64,000 nt of DNA from Bilabrum cf. latius (lineage: Eukaryota): the NCBI GenBank assembly GCA_965178125.1, contig OZ237761.1:186001-250000 (forward strand), in the 5' to 3' direction. The notes beneath the pieces are model-generated. The model was not told where the DNA came from. It was given only the letters and a program-made list of their open reading frames with translations, and did no database searches. This document shows positions 37,982-61,431 of this stretch, piece after piece. Each line of letters opens with the position of its first letter. Position 1 is the stretch's first letter. A program made the position numbers and the translations under genes.

Positions 37982-38082
37982 TGTTATCCGCCAAAATGTG
38001 GAGTTATGATAACTCTATTTCTACTATATAGTAGAAATAGAGTTTACTTATATAAAAACTACACACATTTTGGCGGATAACA
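37982..38082. repeat. 101-bp terminal imperfect palindrome (hairpin-forming)
   Basis: 19-bp outer arms TGTTATCCGCCAAAATGTG / CACATTTTGGCGGATAACA and a central perfect 34-bp palindrome. Confidence 0.95.
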
Positions 38083-39458
38083 TAAGAGGTCAATATTAAC
38101 CACTTCACAACATCTTAAGCCGTAGTCCTTCATAATGTCCTTCACTTGAACATAATAATTTAATAGCTATTTATTCATATATCTACCTAATTTAATACCT
38201 TCGCGCCGTTAATGTCTATCTGTTAGACCTTTACTTTACTTAATCTGTTGAGTGAATCCCTAGCCTAAGTCTTAGGATATGCCCGCCCGAAATTGCGGAA
38301 ATATATAGTCATTTAAGAATATATGTTCGCAATTCTGGGCGCGTAGGTGTATTGAGTTTTATATTATGATTTGGTTTTAAGTATCAATTGACATTTACCA
38401 CTTTAGAAAATAACTAAATAAATACTTAAAGAGATTGACAGAAGTATTAAAGTCTTTTTAATACTTCCAATGAAAAATTTAAATTAATAAATAAAACTAA
38501 ACTAATATATCAACTTAATTTATCTCTTTTTTTATTACTTGTCAATCTATACTTAAATAATTGAATATTTAAATATAACTAGAAGGAGATATTAATCACT
38601 TTATAAAGTCTTTTATATGTCATCTCTTCAAAACTTCAAATATAAGGGTATCCCCTTAAAAATACATTCTTTTATCTATCGCCCGAAATTGCGGTAATAT
38701 TATAGCTATTCAAGATATATTTCTGCAATTCTGGGCGCGTAGGTGTATTGATTTTTATTTTTCATAATTCTTTAAATATGTTAAAGTCCTTTGTTTGAGT
38801 ATATGATATAAAGGAATACAAAGCGGGATAACTTAAAAATGATAAATGTTTTGACGATGACTTTAAAATGACTCAATGAACTGGTTTATGTCAAGTGTAT
38901 TACTTTGAAATGATTAATCACTAGATTAAATGGAAAATATAGGATAATAAAATATGGTATAGTATAATACTAGCGCCCGAAATTGCGGTAATATATTAGG
39001 ATATTAAGATATATTGTCGCAATTCTGGGCGCGTAGGTGTATTGAGTTTTATATTTTGTTAATTTTGACATAGTTATCTTATAGAGGTGTAATTTTGTAA
39101 TAAAGATATTTCTAGTATGTGCTATATTAAATGTCCAGAAATGACGGCCCGAAATTGCGGTAATATATTAGGATATTAAGATATATTGTCGCAATTCTGG
39201 GCGCTTAGGTGTCTTCAATAATTAATAATCAACTACTTCTTTATTTTGATTAATTTTTTTGACTTACCGTTCATTTTATTGACCACTTAACGGGATATCA
39301 CAAAAAGACTTAACCACTTGACGAGATATTTTAAAATAACTAATAATAAATATGACCGCCCCAAATTGCGGAAATATATAAGTATCAAGAAAATTATGTT
39401 TGCAATTCTGGGCGCTCACCCGTATTCAATTTTACATATTCACTAAGTCATACCACTT
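37982..39458 (+). repeat. Left terminal inverted repeat (~1477 bp)
   Basis: Near-identical reverse complement of 59954-61431, except for the terminal 101 bp, which is in direct orientation. Confidence 0.95.
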
Positions 39459-39485
39459 ATTTTAAGTCATTTTCTAGTTTAAAAA

Positions 39486-39518
39486 ACTTAAAGATTTATC
39501 TAGTATATTACTATAGTA
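39486..39518 (+). promoter_or_regulatory. Putative viral promoter class 1: ACTTAAA about 33-48 nt upstream of ATG
   Basis: Recurs at 39486, 39723 and 39968, and on the minus strand upstream of 59189 and 46797. Confidence 0.55.
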
Positions 39519-39728
39519 ATGCCAGATATTAAAGATGTATTAAAATAGGTTCAAGACATTATGGAAGATTATCAAAGACTCAAGGAATAGGAGACCAAAA
39601 AGAAAGAAGCTATTAAAAAAGCTAAATAGAAATATTACCAAAAGAATCAAGAGAAATGGAAGGGGTACTATTAGAAGAGAAAACAGGTTAAGGATGAACC
39701 AGATACAGAAGGATTAAATAAGACTTAA
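39519..39728 (+). CDS. Small basic viral protein (69 aa, 4 in-frame TAG)
   Basis: MPDIKDVLK*VQDIMEDYQRLKE*ETKKKEAIKKAK*KYYQKNQEKWKGYY*KRK..., ends at TAA. Confidence 0.75.
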
Positions 39729-39760
39729 AAATATATTCTATTATTATAGTATTATTAATA

Positions 39761-39973
39761 ATGGATTTAATAGATACCAAATCAAATAATCAAGTTATCA
39801 ATAAACCAATACATCAATTACAAGACTTACCAATAGAGTTTCAAGAGACTATAAGTTATTTACTAATCGGGAAATCCCCAGCAGAAATTGAAAAATTTAA
39901 AAATACTCTAGTTGTGCGCGAAAATCCATCTCAATCCTTTAAGCCAAAATAGTGCGTCTAGAAAATGACTTAA
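39761..39973 (+). CDS. Small viral hypothetical protein (70 aa)
   Basis: Track ORF extended through two TAGs to TAA 39971-39973. Confidence 0.6.
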
Positions 39974-40003
39974 AAAATTATCTTTAGTATAGTATATACT
40001 AGA

Positions 40004-42802
40004 ATGACGACCGAACACATATCTAACCCTGTTTATTTCTCAATAGCTCACAACTCTAAACAACCACTTATTAAGTCTTGGTAGAATTTGGAATCTACTA
40101 AACTTATCACCAGAAAGTCAAATCTTAATGTTGGATTACTTACTGGAAGACGTGCAGGTTTCTTTGTCCTTGACTTAGATTGTGAAAAAGAGAAAAATAA
40201 AACTGAATTTCAAAATGGTAAGTTTATTGCGGAATATGGTAGTGTTGATAAGTTTATTCAAGAGATGAATACTTACACTGTCAAGTCTCCCAATGGATAT
40301 CATTTGTATTTTAAGTATGAAGAAGAGTTTAGTAAGAGGTCAGTAAATAGAAAAGAACATATAGATGTGATCACAAATGATAGCTTTATCATGTGTCCTC
40401 CTAGCTCTATCAACGGTAAGAAATACGAACTAATACAAAAGACATCCGTGAAAAGAATACCAACTGACGTCAAGATGTTCATACTACAAAATATCTATTC
40501 ACCACAACTTACAGCTGAAGACTACCGTTATATGATTAAACCCGAAGAATACAAACAATACTTATATCAATTAGGTAAAGAGTATTATTCTAATTCATAT
40601 AACTGGCATCTAGTTTGTAGAGCTACAAGTTATATCGCTAAATACTTAAATCCAGTAGATGGTAATAAGGTATATGATATATTTGATGAATGGAGCAAAC
40701 AAGACGTAGAAAGCTATTAGTCGACTAAGAACAAGATAATTTTTACTCGATTATTACAAAATTCCACTTTTCAATGTGTTGAATGGTTCTTTAACTAGTT
40801 AGATAGTGAAAAGAAACGACTTAGCCTATATTATCGATACAAGATATTCAAGAATAAAGTAGTCAAGAAAGTCAATTAGAAGATTGACCGTAGATATTTG
40901 ACTGCTGACGACAAAGGTCGTTATATTAAATTCTTTAAGAAAGGTATCAACTATGCCGTTAAGTCGGGGGCTGGTTCTGGAAAGACAACTGCTGCTAATG
41001 ATTTATTTAATAGAGTAGATGACAGCTTTTTATCAGTTGTTAGTCGTATTTTATTAGGTAAGCAATAGATGCGTAGTCTTCCAAAATCAACTAAATTCTA
41101 TCAAGACCATAAATACAAATAGGGTGATAGTATTGTTATTACTCCTGAAAGTATTGTTAGTCTTAGCAATTATAACTTTAAGGATTATATTGTCTTTTTA
41201 GATGAGTTTAATAGTATCTTAGAACACTGTTTAAGTTCTACGACTTTATATGGTAGGCGACCAATGAGTTTCATTACTCTTATTCGTGCTCTTACCACTT
41301 GTAAGTAGTTCATAGTAGCAGATGCTGACTTATCTCAAGATGCTCTATATTTCTTAGAATTATTAAAATTAGATTATCAATATATTAGGAATGACAGAAA
41401 CAGGTTCAAGGGCACCAAAACTGTATTTGTTAATGACGAACAGACTTTTAGAGATGAGTTAATGAAACACAAGAAATTTATGCTTGCTAGTGATAGTAAG
41501 ACAAAAGCTGATATAATCAATGAGTTAATTAGTCTTAAAATTATAGATAACGAGAAAGATAAGAAATTAAATAAAATCTTAATACTTACAGCAGAAAGCG
41601 AAGACAAAGACTATGATATGGATTTGTTTGATATCATTATCTTCTCACCTAAAGTCATTTACGGGATAGATAGCACTATGACTAGACCAGTCTTTGGTTA
41701 TTTCAAAGGTCATACTATCACACCTCCCCAAATGGTTCAATAGCTTAACAGATGTAGAAACCCATCACATATCACTATATTTTTTGATTACTAGAAAGGA
41801 CGATCTAGCACATATGAAAGTCTTTCACAAGTTAAATCTTTTATGGCTACCTCTTTAAAAGACTACGAAGAATTAGTTAAATTTGTCAGTGATACATATC
41901 CCGACTTCAACGAGGTAGAAGTAGAAGACAAAGTAGAAGAAGAAATGAGCAAAGTTAAAATCATATTCAAGAAACTATATCGTAATTATCTTTACAAGGT
42001 AGATTGTTATAAGACAAACCCTAAATTACATATGATCAAGTAGTTAATTGATACCGGTTATGACGTGTCTTATGATTTATCTGTTAAGATCACCAGATGT
42101 AAGGATAAAGAAATCAAAGATACCATTAAAGAAAAACAACTTGAAAATTTTGATATTAATTGTCTTAATGTCAAGAAGATTAATAAATATTTAGACTTAG
42201 ATGAAGGTGATATTGACAAATACAAAGAGTACTTTATTAATAAAGGTAAGTTATCTAATTTATTTAATTTCAATAAATTCTTTAGACAAGATGATAAGCA
42301 CTTACTTGTGAAAGCAATTAATAAAGGCGAGTTTGATATTATCAATGCTAAGTCTAGTTCTAGAAAATTAGTCTTACTTAATAAGATGATTGATACTTTA
42401 GGTCTTAAAAGAACTAATCTTGATTATAATATCAAAAAGAAAGTATTAGATCAAGACTTAACAGATGAATATAGGACAGTGTATGACTGCCAAAGAAGAA
42501 GTAAAGTTGACTTATCCACTGATAAAGGTCTTTATTACGAAATACTTAAAGTATATAAATCAATGTTTGGGAAAGACATATTTATGACTTGTAAGAAAAA
42601 GAAAATTAACTATGATGTAGAATTTAATTAGGATATTATTGATGAGATGGAATATATCTGGTCTAACAAGAAAAAGACTCGTGAAGTAGATATATTTGTT
42701 GATGATGAAGAGGTTCAATTACCCGATGAAGAGATAGAGGTTGACTTAGACCCCGCTTTATTTGTTGATGAGGATAATGATCCACTAGAACAACAAAATT
42801 AA
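40004..42802 (+). CDS. Bifunctional primase-polymerase (AEP) fused to a UL9/origin-binding-protein-like SF2 helicase, 932 aa
   Basis: KQPLIKSW*, NVGLLTG...FVLDLD and GYHLYF (PrimPol); PriCT-like IFDEWSK; KSGAGSGKTT, FLDEFNS, ADADLS, FSPKVIYGID and VQ*LNRCR helicase motifs; 11 in-frame TAG and no TAA/TGA until 42800. Confidence 0.85.
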
Positions 42803-42864
42803 ATTATGACTTATTAATAAAAAACTTAATAAGACTTAATAATACATACCTTATATAAAATGAC

Positions 42865-43215
42865 TTAGTGGTCTCTTTTTGTCTTTTTAATTTTTTCTTC
42901 TCTCTTCTTCCTTTCACATTCACTTCTTTCAACACGATACATCAGCTCCTAGACGTGTTTCACTTGCTCTTCATATTCTAACTGTTCCAATGTACTTTCG
43001 AGTTTCTTGATAATATTGTCGAATTTAAAACTAAAGACATTCTAACGATAACCATCACCTTTGTCTTTTGGTTTCATCCATACATATTTATCAAAGTGAT
43101 TCTCAATACTTTTACCTATACTACTGACTACATCATCGACACCTACACCTTTAACAAGACATTCATCTATAAAATTTTGAGATAGTTCAATTTTGATATC
43201 TTCTTTATCTGACAT
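42865..43215 (-). CDS. Small viral protein, MSDK family paralog A (116 aa)
   Basis: ATG after the shared promoter block, 2 in-frame TAG, ends at TAA. Confidence 0.7.
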
Positions 43216-43246: not shown

Positions 43247-43384
43247 AAGTAATAAACTAGTCTTAAGATATGACCGCCCGAAATTGCGGTAATATTATAG
43301 CTATTTAAGATATATTTCCGCAATTCTGGGCGCGTAGGTGTATTGAATTTTTAAATTTATTTGAATATAATATTTTTTACCTCT

Positions 43385-43768: not shown

Positions 43769-44158
43769 TTATGACATATGTTTTTTATATTCTTTAACAC
43801 TCCTATCCATAGCATCCAGAATCATTTGTCTGTGATCTTCTTCAGTTAATGGTCTTCTTTTCCTGTTGCTATCACTTAACTTACAATGAACGTATCCCAT
43901 AATCGCGTCTTGTCTTTCATCAGTTAAGTCTTTAAGTAATTCAAAAACTTGATTTGCTTTATAGTCGGTCGTGTATGAGAACTCCATCATTCCATCTTTT
44001 GGAGTCGGTTGACCTATTTGTCTTAACACTATCTCATTTCCTTCTATCTTACTTGTGATTTTTCCACATAACATCTTACCTATTCCATCCCAATCAAGGT
44101 TTACACTTGATACAAGACTTTGAGAAAACGATATTTTTAAATCTACTTTATCTGACAT
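43769..44158 (-). CDS. Small viral protein, MSDK family paralog B (129 aa)
   Basis: True ATG follows the duplicated promoter block; ends at TAA. Confidence 0.75.
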   Translation of the reverse strand: MSDKVDLKISFSQSLVSSVNLDWDGIGKMLCGKITSKIEGNEIVLRQIGQPTPKDGMMEFSYTTDYKANQVFELLKDLTDERQDAIMGYVHCKLSDSNRKRRPLTEEDHRQMILDAMDRSVKEYKKHMS

Positions 44159-44300: not shown

Positions 44301-44723
44301 TTAATCCATATTAGGGGGTTTCTTATACAAGATAGCAGGGTCGCATCCATTTGTTGGAAAGTCTGCTGGATACCACCCCCATACTACTTTATAAATATCT
44401 GTGCTCGTGTCGTGTTCAACTTTATGATAAAAAATACAATCATAATGAATACCATTCTAATTACGCACCTCTTGCTCCATCTCTTCAATTATCTATCCTA
44501 CCTTTAACTTTGTAAAGCCTCCTTCACTTACATATGTCTTTATATGACCTCTATTATTTACTTGTATCTAATCTTTATCTATTACAATGTCTTCAGGATC
44601 TCCTTCAAGTTCATCATCTAAGTAAACCTTTTGAGATTTAAGTGTTGGGTCTTCTCTATGTGGTAAGAATAAGAATGAATACTCCATATAAAGTAAGTCT
44701 TCACACGGTGATACTGCTGCCAT
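44301..44723 (-). CDS. Viral hypothetical protein (140 aa, 3 in-frame TAG)
   Basis: MAAVSPCEDLLYMEY...KKPPNMD-TAA; same promoter block; absent from the ORF track. Confidence 0.7.
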
Positions 44724-44910: not shown

Positions 44911-46797
44911 TCACATATTGAGCTACTTTCTAAGTTTCATAAGTTGAGCCTTAGTTAATTTCTTACCTCCACTGGTCAAAAGACTTCCACCACTAGTTAA
45001 AAGACCTGCTCCAACACGTTCAGCTAGGTCATTCACTTCATCGGGTAAGTATTCACTTACTGCTTGTCTTGCTTTACGAAGAGCTGGTTTCACTTTATCA
45101 AATTTAGCTTTAGCTTTCTTTCCAAAGTCTACCACTTTACGTCCTAAGTCTTTAGCTTTGTTAAAGGCTCTCTTAAAGAATTGCATCACTTTACGACGTC
45201 TTCCACCTAATACGTTCTTAGAGTAGTTCATATTAGAAAATGTATAATTAGAAGGTTTAGCCACTTTCTCAGGGTCAACAGAAGCACTATCTTCACGCCA
45301 TTCAATAGCGGCACCTCTAGTATTCACGATAATCTTGTCATAGGCACAGAATAATTGAGCTTTATATCCTTGAGACATAGCAGCGGTTGGGGGTTCGTCA
45401 TAGGCTACTTGAACACGAATACTAATAGGGTCAGCACTGTTGCTTTGAATAGTTTCAGGAGTATTTAAATCACTAAGTCTAAATAAGAGCCAGCCATTAG
45501 ATCCGTATACTTTAGAAGCACCTCCTACAGTTACATCTAAGTTAGTAAAAGAAGCATACTCACTATTTGATCCATTTCTTTCACTAAGTCTAAAGATATC
45601 GTCTTGTGTAAGTTCTCCTAAAATAGAACCCTAAGACCTAAGTTGTACTTTAATATTGTTAATGGCAAGTGTTCTATGAGGTGTACCACTAGCTTCTCCA
45701 TATTGAGAATCAACTAAGCACACAGCAAACCAAGAAGGGCAAGTCTAAAGTTGATAATTATTAAAAGTATGGACACCTTTAGTAGTGATAGGATTATCAA
45801 GTTTAGGCTCTTCATGTAGTTCAAAGTCAACAGAGTTGTAGAATATTTGTTTAGGTACTTTCTTCAAGAAGTTAAGATGAGTATTATAAGTAAAGACATC
45901 AAAATGGATCTAGCAATCGGATAAAGCAAAAGCATAGTCTCCATTCCAATCACTTGAAGTATTAAACATCTTATCAATTAAGTTATTTCTCATTTGTAAA
46001 TTAACATTTAATTGTGGATGATCAACAAAAGGTCTAGCATTACCACCCATCATATATTGGAAAGGACGTGCAAGAAGTGCTTCAGAGATTTCAATATGTA
46101 ATTTGACATAGTCTTGAGTTGGTGTTACATTATTATTAGGTATTGGAGTATTAGCATCCACTTTTTCAAGTGTTGCGCGGTAATTCTTACCAGGACCGCG
46201 AGCTTCCATAATACTATCATCATTTACACCCCATTGAAGGACAGACTTAGCAAGACCATTTGCGGCAGTATTAAATTCCCAAGTGTTATCAGCCTAAAAG
46301 ACAGGACTTATTTGTGCTAGAGTGGCACGGTCAAGACTTCTAGCTATTAAATTGACTAATTGATAAGGTGATGAACTACGAGATAAGTCTCCCATTTTAA
46401 CTGTGGAACTTGTGATCATTGAATTTACCATAAATGTAGAAGGGGCTACCTTATTGACGATATCAGTTTGAGCTACTGCTCCATTGTTCTAACTATCATA
46501 GATGTATACGTCAAATGAAACTCTTAGACGGGGATTACTGTCAGTCATTCCTTGATTTGATGGCACTACGAAAGTATAATTACTTCTAAATGCATTAGTT
46601 GCGCTAGAGTTACCACCATCTGGTTCGTAGTGATTTTGAAACTTGGAAGAGTATCCAAGGGTAGTTCCTAGAGTAATAGCTTGACTATCACCCACAAAGT
46701 TGAGTTTTTCGTCAGCTATTTGAGTTACTGGTAGTTCTGAGACGTCATCTACGACTTTGCTTTGTGCTGCTACAGGTACATTATCCATATCAGACAT
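44911..46797 (-). CDS. Virophage major capsid protein (double jelly-roll), 628 aa
   Basis: Three same-frame track ORFs joined by TAG; size, position after the penton, beta-rich sequence, and a basic C-terminal tail after VLGG with LLTSGG repeats. Confidence 0.85.
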
Positions 46798-46839: not shown

Positions 46840-47766
46840 TTAAGTTATTAACTTTTTACTTTTAAATAGAGCTTTTATATTAAGTCCTTGTCCAAAAGTA
46901 AAGGGTATTTCGTATAAGTTTCCAAAAGTATCTCTAAAATACGGTACTATACTATAACTATTAAATGCTGATCTATAGAACTATTGCCATCTATGATTTC
47001 CTCCACTACTAAAGTTTATTTTAATAAAACTCGTTCCTGTTGTATTGTCTATCTTGAAATCACTTAAGATATTTTCACTTTGTATCTCTGTACTAGATGT
47101 ACTTTTATATGATGGCGTAAATTCTGGAAGTATTGGAAGTGATGGACTAATAATTTGAATATACTCCATAGTAGGAAACTAATCTAAGGTAGAAGCACTC
47201 TATTCATTATATCCATCTAATAGATTTATATAAGTATCACTCTTGATGTCTTTACCTTCATCGTCATATTCAAATGTCTCAAAGATAGAGAATAAAGGAA
47301 AGTTAAAACTTAAAGTCCACGCACTTGTAAAAGCGGCTAAACGGGTGAAACTAAATGTTTTAGTCTTACCGTGATATTCAAATACTATACTATCAGTTGG
47401 AATACTAGCATCTCCACATAAATCACTAAGAGTATTATTAAATTCATTAGATAGGGTCTTAAGACTATAATATAACGGCTTAGTTAAGACAATATTACGA
47501 GTGTAAGTAGTTCCATCACTCTTCTTCACAAACGACATCTTATAAATTGACTAATTATCGCTATTCTTTACTTCTTTACTTGCTACAAATAAAGGAATAC
47601 GACATTTAAGAGTCCATCGGTCAAGTGATAATAAGTAGTTTTGTGAATTTGTCAAGATATTACCTTGACGCTGTTCATGTATTGATACTGGTCTATTAGT
47701 ATTAATAGATGTTATAGTATCCTATGAGTTAATATAAAAGATATCTGGTTCTTGAATCTCTACCAT
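46840..47766 (-). CDS. Minor capsid (penton) protein, 308 aa
   Basis: Lies between protease and MCP; IISPSLPI..E and ILSDF motifs; single frame with TAG read-through. Confidence 0.8.
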
Positions 47767-48126: not shown

Positions 48127-48675
48127 TTAACTAATTATCAAAGTAATAAGTTCATCATTATCTAGTCCTCCTCCATACTTTTTAAAAGCCTTCTTTAATT
48201 GACTATTAAACTAATCATTCGTCAAGTGATGGAATAATATCCTGAGCACACACCACCTCCCGCATGTGGCAGAGTTATTTGATATTAATTGATTCTTTTG
48301 ATTTGAATAGTCAACATTAATACCAGCATCTAATACGTGATCTATTAGAAGACTACTTCTATCATATAGCTTCTATGGGTCTATGACTCCACCTACAACT
48401 GGAATATGAGTATCAGGTAATTGACCATAACTATCCCAAAAATAAAGAGTATTCTTTGATTTGTTAAATATGACCGCAGTATAATGACCGCTCATTGTTG
48501 CTCCTTCTACTAAGTTAGGATAATAAAGGACAAATAAAGGATTTTCATCTAGAAATTGTCTGATGTTATTAGTATCACTTATTTCTTCATACATTATAAC
48601 TGGTATATGCTACTTTGTAAATGTAAAGTATAGTCTTTGTACCTCTTCAGGACTTAATGCAGTGGTTATATCCAT
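48127..48675 (-). CDS. Virion maturation cysteine protease (adenain/Ulp1-like), 182 aa
   Basis: SGHY, FWDSYG and Q...ATCGRWC catalytic motifs; the catalytic Cys lies beyond an in-frame TAG at 48373. Confidence 0.9.
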
Positions 48676-48694: not shown

Positions 48695-49762
48695 TTAATA
48701 TACGAACATCTATTTAGGACAAGTGATAAAATTATAAGTCTTATTAATACATAGCCATCTATTACCTTCTCCAAACAATTTATAAACACGATTTATAAGA
48801 CTTGCATCAAATCCTAAATATGCTTTCATTAAATATTTGCTAAATTTCCATAGATTTCTCTTAAATAAAATAATATTATGACTTTCCATGACTATTGACC
48901 TAGTATTCGCATAATCATTCGTTAAATGACTTATAACTATCATATTTGTTGAGCTATGTCTTCCAACTTCACCTATACGCTTAATTAAGAATAACGCTCT
49001 CTACTTTTTATCACCGTTTAAGGCTTCATAATCATCAAATACCACCACAGAAGGACCCTATTTTGCCCATTCTTCATACAATGGAGTAGTGGTAAATGAT
49101 GCCTTTGTCTTGTCTTTACTTGTTGGTTTCATTCTTTCTATCTCTATCTCTCTTTTAATTAATTCATGAGGTTCTAATGACTTCTTTTCCTACCTAAAGA
49201 ATATCTTTTCTTCTTTGTATTTCCTCATTAAGTCATCATAACTATCGTTTCTATCTACTGCTACTAATTTATCAATATCAATAAAATTACCATATTTTAA
49301 ATAAGTTGGATTTGTTTCCTGTACTGGTGTAATGACTAAAACCCTCTTCTTTGGAATGAACATATGATAATACTTGAGTAAAGACTTAGCAATATAAGAC
49401 TTACCAGCACCAGCCTAACCACTTAAATAGTGTATTTGTCTTTTGGTCTCATCATCAAAGAATGGGACTATTTCAAACTAACTCTTATCATCTATTCTTA
49501 ACTCGTTAGTCTTTCTAACTAGTTTTTTATTTCCATTCACTAGCTTACACATCTCTTCACGTAATGCTTTTTTATTCTTCTCATATTTAATTGCTCTCTT
49601 TCCATAATACTCTTCAAGTAAATCATCACTTATATCTTCTGGAGTTATGACTTTTTCCCCTACATCTTCACTAAAAAAGACGCTTTTGTTCCTCTTCTTG
49701 TGCTTGTATTCTCTTAAAGCAACTAAATGACTATTTGGTATTTCATCGTATGATAATGACAT
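48695..49762 (-). CDS. FtsK/HerA (A32-like) DNA packaging ATPase, 355 aa
   Basis: Walker A SG*AGAGKS with TAG inside the motif, Walker B VVVFDDYE, and GRH...IVISH. Confidence 0.9.
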
Positions 49763-50623: not shown

Positions 50624-51442
50624 TCAATTATGTGAAACTAATTTAACGACCCTTTTATTGAGCTAGTCTTCTAAATATTTAATTATAATACTTACATCTT
50701 TACTATTGAACGTATTAAAGTATTGATATACTGGTTTAATAAGTCCTAATTTACGTACATCATTCTTAAGTCTATCAATAACTCTATTTTTTAATTTAAA
50801 TGGAACTGTTGGAAGTAATAAACTTTTTAATCTTGTAATAGTCAAGTAAAGAAAGCCTACATCGGGATTCTTTATAAGTTGTTCAATCTCTTCCTGTTTC
50901 TTCTTTTGCCCTAATTCGTCATATATAACATCTAGTCTTTTTAATATCTTGAAATATTTTCGTTCTTTTTGTAAGTCTTTTATGTCATCTATCATCCTAT
51001 CTGCTACTTGTTTAGGCTTCATTTTCAATATCTTACCTCCAATATCATATAATATACTAACCTCTTCAATATATCCAGTATAGACCCAACTTTCAACGAA
51101 TATCATAGGATTATTCTACTATTTTAAAGATTTTAATATTTTAGGTCTATTAGTATCAAGAAATGTATCTAAAGAGACGCCATTATCATCATATTCAACG
51201 TTATAAATATGTATTAATCTACTACCTCTTAAGGTCTTTAATTCATTTATAACACTATTGACATCAGACAATTTAACGGGAGAGTATAGGTCTATGTCTC
51301 CAGCCCAAAGTGAAAGCATATTATGAGTAAATGAATATGAACCATTTAAATAAATATCACTTCTATTTATTTTAAAAGACTTGAATATCTTATTATCAAA
51401 TCGTGAATAATACTTTAGCTACTACTTTGTTAATTTAACCAT
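50624..51442 (-). CDS. Putative Pol-beta-superfamily nucleotidyltransferase, 272 aa
   Basis: YLNGS-x13-DIDLY signature; single frame with TAG read-through, including tandem TAG TAG pairs. Confidence 0.55.
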
Positions 51443-51476: not shown

Positions 51477-51920
51477 ATGGACGATTTCATAAGACAAAGA
51501 CTATAGCAACTAGGTAAATCACCCTCTAATGCCAAAGTCAACAATTTAAAAGACGAATTTAAGCAAAAACTACTTGAATTATTTGAAGACTATCAAATGA
51601 ATGGTGTTCAAGGTGGTTCAAAAGTTGGACGCTTTTTTAAAAAAGTAGGTCGTAAATTCAAGAAAGTAGGGCGAACAATTAAAAAAGGTATTAAAAGTAA
51701 TGTAGGAAAGGCAATACGAACAGGTCTTAAGTTTGTAGCCCCTGAAGTTGGTGTCCCTCTTGATGCTGCACTTAAGACTGTAGGACTTGGAAAGGCTAAG
51801 CGTAAGAGGAAACCTAATCCAAAAGCTAAAGCAAGAGGTAAATTAGTGAGTGCGGTAATGAAGAAGTATGGCGTAAGTCTAGGAGAAGCAAGTAAAATAT
51901 TAAAAGAAAATGGTATGTAA
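51477..51920 (+). CDS. Basic core/DNA-condensing protein candidate with GG cleavage site, 147 aa
   Basis: VQGG followed by SKVGRFFKKVGRKFKKVG amphipathic basic helix; very K/R-rich. Confidence 0.65.
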
Positions 51921-51959: not shown

Positions 51960-53402
51960 ATGTCTAAAAAAAGAACAGCAGTATTGGAAGACTTACTCGA
52001 TGGACTTGTGGAAAGTAGAGCCCCTACAAGTCAAGCAAGACGAAAGGTAAGAAACGAAGAGAGAGCCATAAGAGCAGCTATAGGAGAAGCTAAACGAAAA
52101 CAAAAGATTCAATTAGAAGAGGACTTTATGCCATTAGAAGAAAAGAGAAAATTAAAAAGAATAGCAAATCTTATGAAAAGGACTTTAAAAAGAGTTAAAG
52201 ATAACAGTAAGAAAGGTAAAAAGTATAAAGTAGCAGATATAGATCAAGTTGTAAGACTAGCTAAAGATAATGAACTACTTGATGAAGATGCTGAAGCTAT
52301 TGCTAAGATGATATAGAATATTCCATATATGAACTCATCTAATACTCTATTTCAAAAAGGTAAAGCTGAGTCAAAACTTAACGACGCATTAAATAACTTA
52401 TTTATTGAAGCAGAAGAGATAGACAATTTACCTAAAGATGTCAAAGACTTAGAGAATGACTTAACAGTAGACTAGTTGAAGAAGTTTCTTAAAGAGAGAG
52501 GTGTAAGTGATTCAACTTTAAATGGTCTCTCTAAGGCTCAACTTAATTCAATGGCATCAAGACTTGTAAAAGTTAGACAAAGAGCAAAAGGAACACAAAT
52601 AGTACCTCTATTAGAAAGATTAGGAGATAAAAAGTCAAAAGGCTATGCTTTGGAACGATTACGAAGCCAAACTGATCGAGTTAAACTAAAAAGAGATGTA
52701 CTTAATAAAAGAATGGAAGCAATAAATGATATTTATAAAACAAAAGCCACATCTAAAGCACCAGTACTAAAAGATAGACTTAAAGCACTATTAGGTGATG
52801 AATATGATGGTGTGCCAATAGATGATATGTAGTATTATGATTTATAGAGCTTATTTCAAGATATTAAGACTGGAAGACAATCGGGACTTGACAGTAAAAC
52901 TAGATTTGTAAATTTAAATAGAATCAAGTTTGATGACGCAAAGAAAGATATTGAAAGACAATTATCACTAAGAAAAAGACAACCAAACCCATTTAGTCGT
53001 GCAGAACCGTCAGGAACTCCACTTAAAGAAAGACTTAGACGAGCTAAGGAAAAAGATCCAGACTTACGAAGAGAAGCCGCATTAAGTGATGTAATGAATG
53101 AAGCTGCTGAATAGATAGCAAGAGGTAATGAACCTTTAGATGATGAGACAGAAGGGACACTATTAGAAAGACAACCAGATGGAGAATTTGTAGCAAGCGA
53201 TGCAGGCGAAGATCTTGGTAAAGGTCAAGAAGCAAGAACAAGAGCAGCACGAGCAGCACAAGAACGGGAAGAACAAGAACAAGAAGCACAAGGTCAATCA
53301 TCTAGTGGAGCAAGTGAAAGTAAGACTGGTGAAGGTTCAGGTCTTAATAAGAGACTTGATACTCTAATATCTTGGTTAGATTCAAGATTAAGAAGTCTTT
53401 AA
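51960..53402 (+). CDS. Charged coiled-coil protein with SAP/HeH-like motif, 480 aa (probable virion core protein)
   Basis: One frame with TAG read-through to TAA 53400-53402; LTVD*LKKFLKERGV...LSKAQL. Confidence 0.65.
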
Positions 53403-53645: not shown

Positions 53646-54368
53646 ATGGCAGGAATATACAATCTCTTAAACAAAAATGAATATGAATTAAAGAGTAAGT
53701 CTATTGAAGTAGAATCAATTAAAGCAGAAGGCTTTGATGGAGCCGCTAACTTTGGACTTAACTTCAATGGTCAATCACTACCCTATATTATGAGTGGTAC
53801 TAATGAAGATGCTAAGTCTTTCACATGGAGAATAGGTAAAAACTCAGCATCAGCAGGTGCATCTATCTCAATTAATGTCGCAGGTGATGGAACTCAAACC
53901 AGTACTATGACAGCAACCAACTTCTTATCATTTACCGGTACACATGTTGCATCTTGTAGTGATGTTGCTTCTAGTTTACCAGCTGGTATTGGGTCAGTGG
54001 TTACTCTTGATAGTGTAGTTAATAAAGGACCCACAACTAATGAATATGTCGTAAGTCAAGCATCTCAACATTCACCACCTTTTGGAGTATATGTAGGAGA
54101 ACACCATGATGATGGTAAAGTACTTGTAGCATCTTTAGGTGATGGAGCTGTGAAAGTAAATAAAAATGGAGGAGATGTAAGTGCGGGTGATTACTTAATT
54201 AATAGTTCTGATAGTGGATATGTCTACGCGCCTAATCCTCAACCAGTCTCTGTTGATTAGACTATTGTAGCAAAAGCTCTAGTAGATGAAGACTTTTCAA
54301 GTGGTACTTCTACTGATGCTAATGGAGTAGAGTATAAAGTCGTACCTTGTATTTTCTTAACAGGATAA
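53646..54368 (+). CDS. Fibre/spike-like protein with intramolecular-chaperone (peptidase G2-like) C-terminal domain, 240 aa
   Basis: SFTGTH, SLGDGAVKV, GDYL..SS..GY and TIVAKAL pattern. Confidence 0.55.
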
Positions 54369-54411
54369 TTGAGTTTAATTATAGAAATATCTTTTTTATT
54401 AATATAATAAA

Positions 54412-55050
54412 ATGGATGGAATCAGTTCAAGCAGTGTCGTTGTAGGAGGTTTAAGTGTCTTACTACCTCTAGCATACTCTGGTGGTATGTCTTGTTGGTA
54501 GTGGTTATGGGATAAACCTTTACATAAACGTAAAAAAATATGTATCTGTGTGCCTGAAGGTAGTGGTAAGTCTACCGCTTGTCAAATATTACGGTCTAGT
54601 TCTAAAGACTGTTTACTTGTTGATTTAGATAGTACTCTAGGAGTATATGTCTAGGAGCCCGAATTACTTATGAAACTAGACGAATGTAAGTTAAAAAGTG
54701 ATTGGGGTAATTATAATATACTTAATAGAAAAGCCAGTAAAGAAGCCCTTCAATGGGTAAAAGATAACTGGTTGAATGAAGGTAGCGAGAAGAGAGTAAT
54801 ATTCTTTACTAAAGAGTTAAGTCTAGCTAATGAGTTATTTAAAAAAGAAAGTATAGTTGTATGTCTTCCATCTAATTCACTATTCTAGAAGACATTAAAG
54901 GATAAGAAAGTAGATAAATAGAAGTCTATGTTAGAAGACCGTAACTCATATATCAAAGAATTGAACCCTTCTAGCTATTACATTTATAATACTTACGAAT
55001 AGCTTCACGATAAATTGAGGAATTGCCTCTAGTTAGGGTACCAAATATAA
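54412..55050 (+). CDS. P-loop kinase-like protein with N-terminal hydrophobic anchor, 212 aa
   Basis: VVVGGLSVLLPLAY segment, ICVPEGSGKST P-loop and LLVDLD; 6 in-frame TAG. Confidence 0.6.
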
Positions 55051-55202: not shown

Positions 55203-55709
55203 TTACAATTTATAATCTAGACAAATATTGTCTGGTTGTTTAGAAGTATTACATAATAGACTTAACTTTTGATCTATTTCTTTTTCTACTCCTGTTTTAG
55301 TCTTTTCGTCTTCTTGTTCCATCTCTTGGACAGTCTCGTTGATTTTATCCATATCACCGTAAGTCTTTATAAATACTTGTTTTTTCTCGGACATCTTGAT
55401 TTTGCTATCCTCCACATATTGCTCTCCTTCAATATTACATAATATATTATTAAGATGGAGATAACTTTCTGCTTTGTCATCGTGATCTGTGCTTAATACT
55501 TCAACATACTTTGTTTTAAATCTAAGTTCCAAGTTATGACGTATTTCACTCATATGTTTATGGATCTCTTTTGGGTCTTCTATTTCGCTCTCTTCATACA
55601 TTGCTATTATAGTACTTATGACATCACTAGGGTTTTCGTCTCGTATTTTAAGTATTAAACTAAAGACATCAAAGTATTCATTTAAAAACTTCCAAATTGT
55701 GTTTTTCAT
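55203..55709 (-). CDS. Viral hypothetical protein (168 aa)
   Basis: Intact ATG-TAA ORF with CTATATATATAG upstream. Confidence 0.7.
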   Translation of the reverse strand: MKNTIWKFLNEYFDVFSLILKIRDENPSDVISTIIAMYEESEIEDPKEIHKHMSEIRHNLELRFKTKYVEVLSTDHDDKAESYLHLNNILCNIEGEQYVEDSKIKMSEKKQVFIKTYGDMDKINETVQEMEQEDEKTKTGVEKEIDQKLSLLCNTSKQPDNICLDYKL

Positions 55710-55728
55710 TTACCTATATATATAGTGG

Positions 55729-56409
55729 TCATTTTAATAAGATATTTTTAAACTTTGTAAAGTTATCATGAATTTTATCACTATCACCCCAGCACACTTT
55801 AGCATACCATAAGTTGCTGTCATACATATCGGTCTCATCAAAATGAATATGTCCTAATACTCGCTTTCTCATTTTATCAGCGTGTGATTTACCTCTTCTT
55901 AAAGCATCAGGATAAGTCTATGTATTCTTTTTGTTAAAATATACCTTTGTATCATTAATCTCTACACAATAAACATATTCAGGTTTATCACTCACTGTAA
56001 GATCACTAATATTGATTTTTGGTTTTGGTTTCTCTTTAATTGGTTTCTCTTCAATGACTTCACTCACTACTTCACTACTTGTATCACTATATGTATCATT
56101 CAAATAGTCTTCCTCTTTATTATCCTCTATGTCTTCGCTATCTAATTCAACATCTTCCAATATAGCCTATTGTCGTTCTAATTGTGGAGGTTTTAACTAG
56201 ATAGGTTCTATTTTAGACGGTTGTCTCACTAAATTTATAGTTGCTATCTCGTCCCCTTCATCATCTATTTCACCCTATAAACTTGAATAATGCTTGTTAA
56301 TCCATAACATTTTTAAGTCATCACGAGACCACTTGTACTTTTCACTTAACTTGACTACTCTTTTTAGAAGGTCTTTATTTTTGTATCTTGTTATATTTAA
56401 CAATTCCAT
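55729..56409 (-). CDS. Viral hypothetical protein (226 aa), acidic centre
   Basis: Frame open through 4 TAGs to TGA 55729. Confidence 0.6.
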
Positions 56410-56639
56410 ATACTTATTATAAATAATTTCTTTGACTTTGTTTTATATTAATATGGTAAATACTAGAAAAAATTATTATTTTAAAAGTCGTATCTAAACA
56501 CTGGCTAACATAAAATGACATAATTATAAAAATCAATACACCTACGCGCCCAGAATTGCGGAAATATATCTTAATATCCTAATATATTATCGCAATTTGG
56601 GGCGCTGGTATTATGCCATAAAGTATATTACTAGATTAA

Positions 56640-58295
56640 TTATCTCTATCTATCAGAATAGTCTTTCGCAAGTGGTCGTATTTGGTCTTTCCCATAATCC
56701 TATTCTAATTTCTTACGGGTAATCCATTCATTAAACTTATTAGAATATCCCTTATATTTGACTAAGTATTCAATAAGTCTATCTTTATTTTGTCTTTTAT
56801 CTAAAAACTTCTCTATTGTGTCTGGTTCTACTTCTAAACCTTCAACATTATCAATTTCAGGCTCTTCACTTTCCTTGTCTATGTCATCATTTACCTTATC
56901 TTCGTGTTCTACATTGTCTATTTTCTATAACTGTGAAGCATTAAAGAATCCAGTAAGAGGTTCTCCCTCTTTGTCCATTACTTTATATTTAATCCTCTAC
57001 TTAGGATTTCTTGGTTTGGTCTTCTATCTAACAGTGAAGACTTCTCTAGACCAATTAAATAAATTTCCTTTAAACTTGTTCTTCTCAAGTAATACTCTAA
57101 CTCTATCCCCTACATTAAGATCTTTATCATTCCCGTCAAAATTATTTGATAATTTCTTATTTTCAATTCTAGATCTAACTACTTCTAAATTTTCGGGTTT
57201 CATTGCTTCTAGTGGAGACATTCCTATAGTGTTGTGTTTTCTCTTATTATATGCTCTTACTAGTCTCTATAATGACGTATGCCAAACACCATCACTGTCA
57301 TTCTTAATAGCAAAGTCTTTTCTAATCTATTCTTTTATAGTCCTATTAAGTCTTTCAACTGCACCATTAGACTATGGATTTCCTGCGATGGTGAATAGTG
57401 GTTTTATGTCATTGTCATTCATAAATTTAATATATGCCTCTTTATTAAACTCATTATCACTTAACATAACAGTCGGTTTTCTCCAATTAGGTTTCTTAAA
57501 TAGTTTCTTCATCTCACGAATTATATTAACTAATGTCTTATCTTTTAATGAAATACTCCATAGGTATTTTGTGAATATATCCATTATATTTAATATCCAA
57601 TTATAGCCGTCATTAGTGTCTGAATACTTTTGCATGTCTATTAAGTCCAAGGCGTAAATTGAGAAAGGCTTAGTAGGTACAAAAGAACTTACTGCTGACT
57701 GTTTAGGTCGTTTTTTGGTCAATTGGTGGAGCATCTAGTTATTTAACCACTTTTCTACTTGTCGTCTTTTAATACGTTTATCTTTTTGTCTAGCTAGGTC
57801 ATATAACGCATCACGACTAACTACATTACCTTCTTCATAATATAGTTTCTTTAATATTGGTTTATAATTAAATTTGTCTTTGTCGTCCTCATCTTCTACT
57901 TCAATTAACTTACCGGTTGGTTTATTAAGTTTTTTCGTCTAAGCTTTAGTCATCTTATAAAAAAGGCGAACAAGGTTAGACTATTGAACGCTAAAATGAA
58001 CACGACTCACTAAGTTATATAAAGTGAAATAGTCTCCATCCTTCTATATTGAGTTAATTACCCCACCTCTTCTAAATAGTGGCTTTCCCTTGATATTACT
58101 TACATAAGATACATAAGAATATAAAGGTATTTTTTTAATACTTGCTTTGGTAGTTGGTACCTCTTCAAATCCTTTATCAAGTAGTCCCTTAATAGTGGCT
58201 TCTAAATTATCACTATCTTTTTGATTTTTTGTCGGTTCATCACCATACGTGTAAGATATTTTACCTCTAGTGTATGTCTTGCCTTTATTAGTCAT
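56640..58295 (-). CDS. Retroviral-type (rve, DDE) integrase with C-terminal chromodomain, 551 aa
   Basis: ALDLIDM, LSDNEF, GNP*SNGAVERLNRTIK, NWSREVF and IEKFLDKR...EYLVKYKGYSNKFNEW. Confidence 0.95.
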
Positions 58296-58381: not shown

Positions 58382-58615
58382 TTATGCTGTAATTGTTCCA
58401 TTTTTCTTTAATATTTCTTCTCGTTCTTCTTTACTTTGAAGATTATAAAAAAGAGTCTATGATCCATTTGACATATCCCACTCATTGCCATCAAAACATA
58501 ATTTAATTTCATCTTTTAAATTGTCCTCTATAGCTTTTATAGCCTTTTCAATAACTTTATTATTTTTACAAGCTTTTAAAAACTTGGGAGACATTATAAT
58601 TTTCAAGTCGTACAT
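58382..58615 (-). CDS. Small viral protein, distant MSDK-family paralog C (77 aa)
   Basis: MYDLKIIMSPKFLKAC N-terminus; CGCCAA promoter variant upstream. Confidence 0.5.
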
Positions 58616-58655
58616 ATATATAAAGACGATATAATATGTTGGCGTAAATTAAACA

Positions 58656-59189
58656 TTATTTCTTATATTTCTTTCTCTTCTAGTTACAGTCATAACAAAA
58701 CCAGAAAGTGGCTCCTGGTTTAATAAGATACTTTTCACATTTCTTACATTGTGAGTATTTCCTCTTTTTATTATAACAACTAAGACAAGTCTTTTTATAT
58801 TTATGTTTTTCAATGAACTCATCGCAATCAGTGCATCTACTCTTATCTTTTAATATGTCTTTATTTAATTCGTGTTTAATGGATTTAATATGACTTTTCC
58901 AGCTACTACGTTTAACAACACAAGAGCATACATCACAAGTCTTATACATACAAGCCTTATACACATCATGATCCTTTTCGAATGTGTTATTAATACATTC
59001 AGAACCTAATTTAAATATATCACCAGTTGGGGGATACTCAACGAAATGAACTTCCTTAATTTGGTGATCACAGATACACTTTCCGTCTTCTTCTCTAGTC
59101 TCTCCAGCTGGTATTAATAGAGGGGCTATCTTATTCCAGTCATTAATCTTTAGCTTATTGATTATGAAGTTACGACATTTATAGCACAT
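58656..59189 (-). CDS. Cys-rich multi-zinc-finger viral protein, 177 aa
   Basis: CICDH...GSEC, C2H2-like CDVC...HIKSIKH, and several CxxC pairs. Confidence 0.75.
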
Positions 59190-59346
59190 TATAATATAGT
59201 ATATACTATAATAATATATTATTTTTAAGTCTAATTAAACGAGATGTCTTAAGCTCGATTCAAATTTGGGCGCCCGAAATTGCGGTAATATTATAGCTAT
59301 TCAAGATATATTTCCGCAATTCTGGGCGCGTAGGCGTATTGACTTT

Positions 59347-59754
59347 TTAATTTAATATTTTTAATTGTTTCAGTCTTGCGTCCACTTTAGACCTATAGTC
59401 ATCTAACCATTTTTCCAAAGTATCCCCTTTAACATACCTTTTTACATCTAATACTCCATTGGCTAGTTTTGTTAAGTAGTCCTTAATAGCATTATCACTT
59501 CCCCATAAGATTTTATGACTGTGATATTTTGAGCTATTAGTATCGGTAGTCTTCCCGTGTCTTCGGTAGTATAGGCGTCGTCTTTTAGGGTCAATATGGT
59601 TATTATCTCCATACTTACCAATCAAATCAAAGTATTGAGCATATCGTGCATCACCAAAGCTAGTGATATACTTACCATTTTTGAATACATCATATTTCTT
59701 ATTTCTACGAGTAGAGGGTTTATATTTGAATCCATCAATAATTATCTCATACAT
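59347..59754 (-). CDS. DUF5754-like protein of giant viruses/virophages
   Basis: STRRNKKYDV, FGDARYAQY, RRRLYYRRH and HKILW pattern. Confidence 0.65.
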   Translation of the reverse strand: MYEIIIDGFKYKPSTRRNKKYDVFKNGKYITSFGDARYAQYFDLIGKYGDNNHIDPKRRRLYYRRHGKTTDTNSSKYHSHKILWGSDNAIKDYLTKLANGVLDVKRYVKGDTLEKWLDDYRSKVDARLKQLKILN

Positions 59755-59762
59755 AATATATT

Positions 59763-59972
59763 ATGATACAAGATTTATTAACTTAGTATATTGTCGGTAA
59801 GACTTGTAAATTAGTTATTAAATAGGTGAAGACAACCAAGACATATCATACGACTAAATCATATGTTAAGGACTAGTTAGAAGAAGTACTCAATACATTG
59901 AAACAAGTTAAAGGACATTCTAAATGTGAACACAAGATCAAATGGACCACTTCAAGTGGTATGAGTTAGTGA
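59763..59972 (+). CDS. Possible small viral ORF (69 aa)
   Basis: Open with TAG read-through from ATG to TGA, but only 8 bp from the divergent ATG. Confidence 0.3.
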
Positions 59973-61431
59973 ATATGTAAAATTGAATACGGGTGAGCGC
60001 CCAGAATTGCAAACATAATTTTCTTGATACTTATATATTTCCGCAATTTGGGGCGGTCATATTTATTATTAGTTATTTTAAAATATCTCGTCAAGTGGTT
60101 AAGTCTTTTTGTGATATCCCGTTAAGTGGTCAATAAAATGAACGGTAAGTCAAAAAAATTAATCAAAATAAAGAAGTAGTTGATTATTAATTATTGAAGA
60201 CACCTAAGCGCCCAGAATTGCGACAATATATCTTAATATCCTAATATATTACCGCAATTTCGGGCCGTCATTTCTGGACATTTAATATAGCACATACTAG
60301 AAATATCTTTATTACAAAATTACACCTCTATAAGATAACTATGTCAAAATTAACAAAATATAAAACTCAATACACCTACGCGCCCAGAATTGCGACAATA
60401 TATCTTAATATCCTAATATATTACCGCAATTTCGGGCGCTAGTATTATACTATACCATATTTTATTATCCTATATTTTCCATTTAATCTAGTGATTAATC
60501 ATTTCAAAGTAATACACTTGACATAAACCAGTTCATTGAGTCATTTTAAAGTCATCGTCAAAACATTTATCATTTTTAAGTTATCCCGTTTTGTATTCCT
60601 TTATATCATATACTCAAACAAAGGACTTAAAACATATTTAAAGAATTATGAAAAATAAAAATCAATACACCTACGCGCCCAGAATTGCGAAAATATATCT
60701 TGAATAGCTATAATATTACCGCAATTTCGGGCGATAGATTAAAGGATGTATTTTTAAGGGGATACCCTTACATTTGAAGTTTTGAAGAGATGACATATAA
60801 AAGACTTTATAAAGTGATTAATATCTCCTTCTAGTTATATTTAAATATTCAATTATTTAAGTATAGATTGACAAGTAATAAAAAAAGAGATAAATTAAGT
60901 TGATATATTAGTTTAGTTTTATTTATTAATTTAAATTTTTCATTGGAAGTATTAAAAAGACTTTAATACTTCTGTCAATCTCTTTAAGTATTTATTTAGT
61001 TATTTTCTAAAGTGGTAAATGTCAATTGATACTTAAAACCAAATCATAATATAAAACTCAATACACCTACGCGCCCAGAATTGCGAACATATATTCTTAA
61101 ATGACTATATATTTCCGCAATTTCGGGCGGGCATATCCTAAGACTTAGGCTAGGGATTCACTCAACAGATTAAGTAAAGTAAAGGTCTAACAGATAGACA
61201 TTAACGGCGCGAAGGTATTAAATTAGGTAGATATATGAATAAATAGCTATTAAATTATTATGTTCAAGTGAAGGACATTATGAAGGACTACGGCTTAAGA
61301 TGTTGTGAAGTGGTTAATATTGACCTCTTATGTTATCCGCCAAAATGTGGAGTTATGATAACTCTATTTCTACTATATAGTAGAAATAGAGTTTACTTAT
61401 ATAAAAACTACACACATTTTGGCGGATAACA
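59954..61431 (-). repeat. Right terminal inverted repeat (~1478 bp)
   Basis: Reverse complement of 37982-39458 with few differences. Confidence 0.95.
61331..61431. repeat. 101-bp terminal imperfect palindrome, identical in direct orientation to 37982-38082
   Basis: Base-by-base comparison. Confidence 0.95.

Follow-up and report, generated by a model that had tools for sequence, protein, structure and literature searches.

We analysed a window of 64,000 nucleotides from the assembly of Bilabrum cf. latius (GCA_965178125.1, contig OZ237761.1, positions 186,001 to 250,000 of the forward strand; all positions given here count from the first nucleotide of this window) and describe a virophage-like element integrated in it. 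The GC fraction is 0.28-0.37 within the low-GC block that the element forms (about 30 % overall) compared to 0.56-0.72 outside positions 38001-62000. Its boundaries agree exactly with those of the original prediction, a note made earlier from the nucleotide sequence of this window, which had described an intact endogenous virophage reading TAG as glutamine. The termini have the form TG...CA (TGTTATCC from 37982 and GGATAACA up to 61431) and adjoin a 5-bp target-site duplication (TSD), as a result of integration by an rve-type enzyme. Terminal repeats occupy about 1.48 kb at each end (Table 1).

Virophage genes in an AT-rich element

Once TAG is read as an amino acid, the element contains 19 tightly packed open reading frames (ORFs) of 116 to 932 aa. 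The original prediction had proposed to re-annotate the region in this way and to search it with virophage capsid profiles. Read with TAG as Q the ORFs are full length, and in a Pfam scan of 20 translations (all 19 main ORFs plus a small one) the major capsid protein (MCP) matches MCP_V20_C (PF22031) with 30.4 bits, above the cut-off of 27. Its sole relatives among PDB sequences are those of the mavirus MCP (6g45, E 1.2e-15 over the 466 residues 68-533). The penton protein likewise matches mavirus and also the Sputnik minor virion protein (3j26_N, E 4.7e-5), and the two capsid proteins together bear out the assignment to the virophages. The penton gene lies upstream of the MCP gene and ends 43 nt before its start. 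The order ATPase-protease-penton-MCP is the same as in mavirus.

An exhaustive HMMER search of 1.84 billion representative sequences returned only 60 relatives of the MCP, the closest of them beyond its own cluster being 32 % identical; among 15 relatives scanned, 14 carry MCP_V20_C and three carry Sputnik_MCP_1st. MCP peptides from the window and from two distant relatives found no match in IMG/VR, the MCP alignment found none in the JGI metagenomes, and a tblastn search of a phage collection was equally negative. Judged by sequence similarity, the capsid lineage of this element is distant from everything in the collections searched. Within the MCP, the motif VLGG at residues 529-532 aligns with VMGG of mavirus and two TSGG repeats lie near the C-terminus; we take these motifs to resemble the consensus of adenain-type cleavage sites. 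The C-terminal 100 residues of the MCP (44911-45210) and the small protein o147 are both lysine-rich, with alike K/G/R repeats and GG motifs, and possibly represent processed core or DNA-binding peptides.

The remaining core genes are recognised with varying clarity. The PrimPol-helicase contains a Walker A motif (GAGSGKTT) and a DEF box, both read from its sequence, and has no sequence match among PDB sequences. The integrase carries a C-terminal chromodomain (Pfam Chromo, 30.3 bits, cut-off 25.1), and PDB integrases and chromodomains match it as well. The putative packaging ATPase falls just under two Pfam cut-offs (AAA_10 with 25.2 bits and a cut-off of 27.5, AAA_22 with 25.9 and a cut-off of 27) and shows a Walker B motif, VVVFDD, read from sequence. 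The putative cysteine protease has a weak match to Peptidase_C57 (16.3 bits, cut-off 24.5), GHY...Q..CG motifs read from sequence and no match among PDB sequences. AlphaFold2 single-sequence models of these two proteins are of low confidence (pLDDT 44 for the protease and 38 for the ATPase). No protein-primed or other polymerase family was found among the 20 scanned translations, a scan that a very divergent domain could escape. The window contains no tRNA gene, hence the element has none, and no Rfam family.

Table 1. Position of the element, its genes and repeats, and three flanking host genes in the window
Feature	Position	Strand	Remarks
Host CLU-family gene, stop TGA	6147..14252	-	TAG at residue 2046 between eIF3_p135 (1893-1952) and TPR (2299-2361)
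Host gene o833, 4 in-frame TAG, stop TGA	27706..30207	-	homologs cover 99-100% of residues 130-700
Host class-3 lipase gene, stop TGA	30663..34664	+	Lipase_3 (675-715) between TAGs at 661 and 764
TSD, left copy, GGTGT, 5 bp	37977..37981	.	adjoins element start
Whole integrated element (probable virophage), 23,450 bp, TG...CA termini	37982..61431	.	GC contrast, ends, repeats
Left terminal 101-nt imperfect palindrome	37982..38082	.	framed by an inverted pair of the 19-nt end sequence
Terminal inverted repeat, left arm, 1,395 nt	38064..39458	.	99% and 100% complementary to 59954-61349
Hairpin repeat, 5 copies in left arm	38285, 38681, 38975, 39147, 39358
PrimPol-helicase, 932 aa, 11 TAG	40004..42802	+	Pfam Prim-Pol 8.9e-14, 52.7 bits, cut-off 22.8
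o116, 116 aa, 2 TAG	42865..43215	-	no Pfam family; N-terminus paralogous to o129
Hairpin repeat, unique region	43276..43331; starts 44219, 44784, 47804, 47975, 50437, 50556, 59272; ends 53554, 55149, 56603		intergenic
o129, 129 aa, no TAG	43769..44158	-	ORF call
o140, 140 aa, 3 TAG	44301..44723	-	ORF call
MCP, 628 aa, 6 TAG, stop TGA	44911..46797	-
Penton (minor capsid) protein, 308 aa, 5 TAG	46840..47766	-	mavirus 6g41, E 7.2e-13
Putative cysteine protease, 182 aa, 3 TAG	48127..48675	-	located as in mavirus, with ATPase and penton on either side
Putative packaging ATPase, 355 aa, 6 TAG	48695..49762	-	one TAG within Walker A (GqAGAGKS)
o173, 3 TAG, stop TGA	49908..50429	+	ORF call
o272, 5 TAG, stop TGA	50624..51442	-	no Pfam family
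o147, lysine-rich basic protein, 1 TAG	51477..51920	+	ORF call
o480, 480 aa, 5 TAG, SAP-like stretch	51960..53402	+	weak Pfam SAP, 17.3 bits, cut-off 23.9
o240, 1 TAG	53646..54368	+	ORF call
o212, P-loop protein (PEGSGKST), 6 TAG	54412..55050	+	Pfam AAA_18 18.6 bits, cut-off 29.4
o168, no TAG	55203..55709	-	ORF call
o226, 4 TAG, stop TGA	55729..56409	-	ORF call
rve-type integrase with C-terminal chromodomain, 551 aa, 12 TAG	56640..58295	-	Pfam rve 32.8 bits, cut-off 32.6
o177, cysteine-rich, 1 TAG	58656..59189	-	ORF call
o135, no TAG	59347..59754	-	Pfam DUF5754 26.7 bits, cut-off 27.4, E 5.9e-6
Terminal inverted repeat, right arm	59954..61349	.	complementary to left arm
Hairpin repeat, 5 copies in right arm	ending at 60054, 60265, 60437, 60732, 61128
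Right terminal 101-nt imperfect palindrome	61331..61431	.	same orientation as the left one
TSD, right copy, GGTGT, 5 bp	61432..61436	.	adjoins element end

Among the accessory genes, o135 is the only one with any hint of a family (DUF5754, below its cut-off).

TAG as a sense codon in the element and in its host

Across the 5,571 codons of the 19 ORFs, TAG occurs 74 times in frame while TAA and TGA do not occur at all, and 16 of the 19 ORFs contain at least one TAG. The ORFs terminate at TAA (15) or TGA (4), never at TAG. In their two off-frames these ORFs contain 634 TAA, 422 TGA and 358 TAG, so that chance or decay would have placed hundreds of TAA and TGA codons in frame. TAG is a sense codon in this element. 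Translation in a cell with the standard code would cut short 16 of its 19 genes.

These counts agree with the description in the original prediction of core genes that are full length and end in TAA or TGA. The TAG codons that it had quoted from within motifs are all present as well (q denotes TAG): GNPqSNGAVERLNRT, WLNNq and QLqKI in the integrase, KSWq in the PrimPol domain, VQqLNRCR in the helicase, SGqAGAGKS in the ATPase and TVDqLK in o480. The element had further been said to be invisible to standard gene calling. With table 11 the longest sense-strand pieces are at most 210 aa, compared to ORFs of 932, 628, 551, 480 and 355 aa when TAG is read as Q, and surveys run with table 1 or table 11 would split the element into such fragments. 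The element is nevertheless not invisible, since the protein collection includes its full-length MCP and integrase sequences translated with TAG as Q.

One explanation for the in-frame TAG codons is that the virophage is dead and that its CAG codons have decayed to TAG by C-to-T mutation, in line with the near absence of CAG (7 codons compared to 137 CAA). The same process would be expected to turn CAA into TAA and CGA into TGA, and the complete lack of both products refutes it. Moreover, every CNG codon is rare and not CAG alone (CTG 3, CGG 2, CCG 9), the terminal inverted repeats (TIRs) are still 99-100 % identical, the differences between copies are mostly synonymous and the host reads TAG too. 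We therefore dismiss decay. The original prediction had named CAG or CAA at these sites in other copies as a sign of inactivation; compared at the protein level, relatives have Q at 26 of 36 TAG cells, where a cell is one relative at one TAG position.

Six host ORFs in the GC-rich flank, read with TAG as sense, contain 24 in-frame TAGs and all stop at TGA. Four of them belong to Pfam families, namely a CLU-family protein of 2,701 aa, a Na+/H+ exchanger, a class-3 lipase and an FSH1 hydrolase, the last of which has no relative among PDB sequences; the other two, 833 and 685 aa long, lack a Pfam family. In the 833-aa protein (o833) all four TAGs lie within ungapped conserved blocks, which rules out introns at these places, and 10 of 21 homologs have Q in the column of residue 180. 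Its top two homologs are choanoflagellate transcriptome proteins (49-52 % identical), a weak lead as to what the host lineage might be. The host genes look intron-poor, the longest single ORF reaching 2,701 aa, and lie in sequence of 56-72 % GC. Taking viral and host genes together, TAG terminates none of 25 (19 viral and 6 host).

The host genome itself thus appears to use a TAG-sense code, and because the host TAGs are read through within conserved regions, the recoding belongs to the host and is not a viral device of the phage type. The alternative is a host with the standard code in which the virophage or its helper supplies the suppression, as the existence of phages with code 15 might suggest (excerpts of PMC9523058). 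This would fit the uneven use of the codon, since TAG makes up 74 of the 218 presumed Gln codons of the element (about a third) and 24 of 311 in the six host ORFs (about 8 %). The heavier use is explained by the AT-richness of the element, in which all CNG codons are rare. The 24 host TAGs, flanked by conserved domains or blocks in three genes (CLU, lipase and o833), and the lack of a tRNA gene in the element make virus-specific suppression highly improbable. The analogy to code-15 phages drawn in the original prediction consequently fails: the flanking host genes read TAG too, and the virus follows the code of its host.

Which amino acid TAG encodes is less directly readable. In the integrase, alignment to distant homologs gives Q in 6 of 11 at the TAG column of residue 187 and in 7 of 11 at residue 457, and a minority of Q at residues 343 (3 of 11, with P in 5 of 11) and 308 (2 of 11). 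The TAG of the GNPqSNG motif aligns with the Q of PQSQ in a retroviral integrase (4pa1) and with R in the Ty1 integrase. The TAG columns of the MCP are variable polar positions occupied mainly by K, R, N and Q. Against glutamine stand the log-odds pooled over 18 alignable TAG columns (K 14.9, Q 12.8, R -2.3) and a likelihood calibrated on the same alignments (lnL of -946.6 for K, -951.5 for Q and -975.7 for R). By these distant alignments the residue is Gln or Lys, and they do not separate the two.

Close relatives are more informative. Four of them in the protein collection, 76-88 % identical, provide the 36 TAG cells, of which 26 are Q, one is K and nine are other residues; the Q letter is conserved to a similar degree at integrase Gln positions coded by CAA or CAG (15 of 20 cells). 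A Lys codon would drift synonymously to the far commoner AAA and AAG, so that the scarcity of K points to Gln. The Q letters fit Gln because TAG and CAA would each give Q; they may, to the detriment of this argument, simply be TAGs translated as Q by the pipeline of the collection.

A sense codon for Lys or another residue than Gln would account for the slight lead of K in the pooled distant columns, for K or R being commonest at MCP columns 168 and 389 and host columns 159 and 362, and for one difference between copies that changes AAG to TAG. It would not account for the three columns with a clear majority, all of them Q (integrase 187 and 457, host o833 180), for the residues of the close relatives or for the Q of the retroviral integrase at the PQSxG motif. 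In addition, UAG to Gln is the commonest reassignment in eukaryotes. We consider Lys or another residue improbable and TAG most probably to encode Gln, as the original prediction had proposed; the close relatives favour this part of it, while over the 18 alignable columns it remains tied with Lys.

Ends, copies and intergenic signals

The sequences at the ends of the element have an unusual arrangement. The outermost 101 nt are 100 % identical between left and right in direct orientation and lie beyond the inverted repeat. The 19-nt end sequence occurs four times in the window compared to 0.01 copies expected by chance, so that each element end has two inverted copies of this integrase-end sequence. 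When single-stranded, the 101-mer forms a single long hairpin (-51.3 kcal/mol, z -13.1). The arrangement recalls telomeres of the foldback or hairpin kind, or else a mini-element of 101 bp that consists of two ends.

The element is found in six public sequencing runs of two studies (92-94 % of sampled words), and the contigs of four runs were compared over 36800-56700. One contig of run X3 matches the left flank as far as 37981, where it passes straight into 30 letters equal to 61437-61466; this is the empty site, with one GGTGT. Two contigs, in runs X3 and X5, join the left element end to other GC-rich flanks. Run X7 yields only pieces of 37-42 nt with 6-8 mismatches, from which we draw no inference. 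The locus is polymorphic for the insertion. The host DNA that flanks the element left and right, together with the empty-site contig, establishes it as endogenous, and full-length core genes, nearly identical terminal repeats and the TSD agree with its description as intact. Across the empty site (37350-37981 joined to 61437-63303) a frame of about 833 codons, by coordinates, is open when TAG is sense; it contains 12 TAGs, has no Pfam family on either side and may not be a gene.

Between the copy in the window and the run contigs, 40 of 138 differences are visible, a partial sample that tempers what follows. Of these, 34 fall in ORFs and 20 of the 34 are synonymous under TAG as Q, where 20-23 % would be expected (P < 1e-5), and none creates a TAA or TGA. 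The AAG to TAG difference mentioned above is at codon 165 of o212, which is TAG in the run contigs and AAG in the window. The excess of synonymous changes indicates that the frames read with TAG as sense are under purifying selection. The element is recently mobile and under selection.

Two variants were seen among the runs. Contigs in three runs skip 585 nt of o480 (52464-53050; 195 codons, in frame) at depths of 2, 48.6 and 90.4 compared to about 3, 332-373 and 485-509 for the full form, which points to a deletion variant in the minority. A contig of run X1, with a depth of 3, has 24 other letters in place of 1,372 nt (42833-44206, from o116 to o129). This is possibly a variant without the two small paralogous ORFs o116 and o129, uncertain at such low depth.

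A 56-nt hairpin repeat with the stems GCCCSAAATTGCG and GCAATTCTGGGC is present in 21 copies, five in each TIR and 11 in the unique region. All 11 of the latter are intergenic, while intergenic DNA makes up only 18 % of the unique region, and they lie 8-95 nt past the stop of the last gene in each co-oriented group. The genes followed by a hairpin are those of the MCP, the protease and the integrase, o173, o272, o480, o212, o168, o135, o140 and a short ORF with a TTG start (43357-43659). No hairpin is found in the gaps penton-MCP, ATPase-protease, o147-o480, o240-o212 and o226-o168. As RNA the intergenic copies fold with -19 to -29 kcal/mol. The stems are invariant over 16 aligned copies, which makes covariation uninformative, and a search with the hairpin pattern gave no match in the JGI metagenomes or IMG/VR. 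By their placement the hairpins look like terminators or 3'-end signals bounding transcription units.

Upstream of the genes, AAATATC stands 21-36 nt before 8 of the 19 ATGs, accounting for 8 of its 21 occurrences in the element, and a ACTATATATATAGT-type palindrome adjoins several ATGs. The TCTA promoter of the CroV type is found upstream of only 4 of 19 genes and we do not propose it. A 187-nt cassette that combines the hairpin with a promoter-like AAAAAATATCCACTATATATATAGT is repeated at 43168-43354, 44111-44297, 44676-44862 and 59164-59350, preceding o116, o129, o140 and o177. The proteins o116 and o129 share the N-terminus MSDK.D.KI..SQ. This suggests that small genes were tandemly duplicated along with their control region.

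Taken together, we conclude that the element is very probably an intact endogenous mavirus-like virophage that uses the TAG-sense code of its host. As its anatomy shows, it entered the nuclear genome of its host, a unicellular eukaryote with few introns and a high GC content, by means of its rve-type integrase. Its proteins would be made on host ribosomes with a host tRNA that reads UAG, the element being without a tRNA of its own. It would lie silent in the chromosome until a compatible giant virus infects the cell, and we infer its dependence on such a virus from its likeness to known virophages. Upon infection, transcription would start from the short AT-rich promoters directly 5' of each ATG and finish at the conserved hairpin present in nearly every intergenic gap, followed by replication by the PrimPol-helicase, packaging by the ATPase and capsid maturation by the protease.

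Alternatively, the element may be an autonomous virus-transposon, Polinton/Maverick-like or polinton-like, that carries capsid genes of the mavirus type and has no giant-virus helper. Such elements would equally have an rve integrase, TIRs and a 5-bp TSD, the present one seems to exist in multiple copies and in several flanking contexts, no sign of a helper virus was found, and with its closest MCP relative outside its own cluster so dissimilar its biology could differ from that of mavirus. On the other hand, the MCP and penton match only virophage proteins in PDB and Pfam, and the replication gene is a PrimPol-helicase, with no protein-primed polymerase in the translations scanned. The low GC, the promoter-like motifs and the terminator-like hairpins also suggest a transcription machinery other than that of the host. 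We consider an autonomous element unlikely and retain the virophage.

Besides the partial sample of differences between copies, several points speak against our conclusion. The data show neither a giant virus nor a virion, transcript or tRNA, and the lifestyle is argued by homology. That TAA is a stop in the host would follow from the 15 TAA terminators of the virophage, all six host genes ending in TGA. The ATPase and protease fall short of Pfam cut-offs and are putative. The invariant hairpin stems could equally fit a DNA or protein-binding site or an internal selfish repeat. Finally, the word depth of the element contigs (282-391 in X3 and 485-533 in X5) exceeds that of the flank (42-48 and 72, respectively) about 7-9-fold, which is not a copy number, and the excess may stem from several integrated copies or from free viral DNA.

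Known systems and implications

The comparisons in this section draw on excerpts of the papers cited. The element shares with mavirus and the endogenous mavirus-like elements (EMALEs) of Cafeteria burkhardae a low GC content in a high-GC host, TIRs, a short TSD (mostly 3-5 bp in EMALEs and 5-6 bp in mavirus), an rve integrase and a penton gene directly before the MCP gene (PMC8547959). The order ATPase-protease-penton-MCP recurs in mavirus and in EMALE types 4-7 (Hackl et al., PMC8547959). As in the mid-GC EMALEs, a primase/helicase takes the place of the protein-primed polymerase pPolB, and EMALE insertion sites also vary between strains (PMC8547959). Unlike in EMALEs, the low GC of the present element goes with a long PrimPol-helicase, and neither pPolB nor a tyrosine recombinase was found in it. 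Similarity to mavirus is only distant in the MCP (E 1e-15). The 101-nt terminal palindrome and the 21-fold hairpin are not described for mavirus or EMALEs in the excerpts of PMC8547959. The TAG-sense code is a further difference, the nuclear genes of Cafeteria being annotated with the standard code and only its mitochondrion with a non-standard one (10.1101/751586).

The hairpins of mimiviruses are described as diverse in sequence. The present element has instead one conserved hairpin family with invariant stems. It otherwise resembles Mimiviridae and their virophages in having hairpin palindromes after the last gene of most units and AT-rich motifs before the ATGs; virophages of mimivirus have genes flanked by terminator hairpins and late promoters like those of the helper virus (PMC7031253). 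Hairpin terminators of mimiviruses, virophages and transpovirons are also treated in PMC4402537.

Code-15 phages use a code that differs from that of their host and often carry suppressor tRNAs. In the present case virus and host share one code, and the element is without a tRNA gene. What is common to both is the abundance of in-frame TAG and the fragmentation of the genome by standard calling, as in crAss-like phages (PMC9523058).

The closest precedent is Streblomastix strix, whose endogenous polinton-like viruses use the host table with TAA and TAG as Gln; the shared variant code is taken as a sign of long association of virus and host (Bellas et al., PMC10120064). As in that case, an integrated capsid-bearing protist DNA virus follows the reassigned stops of its host, so that a protist DNA virus in a variant host code is not new in principle. 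The Streblomastix viruses belong to the Metamonada-group lineage of polinton-like MCPs and not to the mavirus-like virophages, and both TAA and TAG are reassigned there (PMC10120064), whereas here TAG alone is reassigned and TAA is the main terminator of the element. The element described here is moreover complete, with ends, duplication, empty site and selection, unlike the Streblomastix case as presented in those excerpts. What is new is a complete mavirus-like virophage in a variant code, the TAG-only reassignment with TAA as main terminator, direct evidence of recent mobility, and the code variant of the host, for which no description was found in the literature searched.

In the literature searched (main texts), the Streblomastix case and metagenomic hints of giant viruses were all that we found, and no virophage with a variant code. 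Searches for a GC-rich or choanoflagellate host with UAG as Gln brought up no such case, and a code variant like that of the present host, with UAG reassigned and UAA kept as a stop, was not found described. Pánek et al. reportedly described a UAG-only Gln code in a fornicate in 2017. In a 2026 catalogue, giant-virus metagenome-assembled genomes annotate better under alternative codes, while the confirmed isolates are all from standard-code hosts (PMC13524828).

The element may bear on more than its own biology. Virophages are translated on host ribosomes but transcribed and replicated in the factory of a giant virus. Considered with the 74 in-frame TAGs, this points to a rare-code protist and a giant virus able to live there: the virophage and its host both read TAG as sense, so that whichever giant virus it exploits has to operate in that code as well. 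The original prediction had likewise proposed a helper giant virus compatible with the code and a code-based barrier to host range, and we regard both as reasonable conjectures. It is a realistic possibility, if not yet one that we would call probable, that the element marks a complete undiscovered system of host, giant virus and virophage, all in a UAG-sense code. The promoter-like motif, the conserved hairpin and a host that apparently lends itself to repeated sequencing (six runs in two studies) offer handles in the search for the helper, and the empty and filled site provide a clean marker for tracking mobility. If such a system exists, the roughly 4-fold heavier use of TAG than in the host would lock the virophage and its helper into the host lineage, and the code would act as a natural firewall on eukaryotic DNA viruses.

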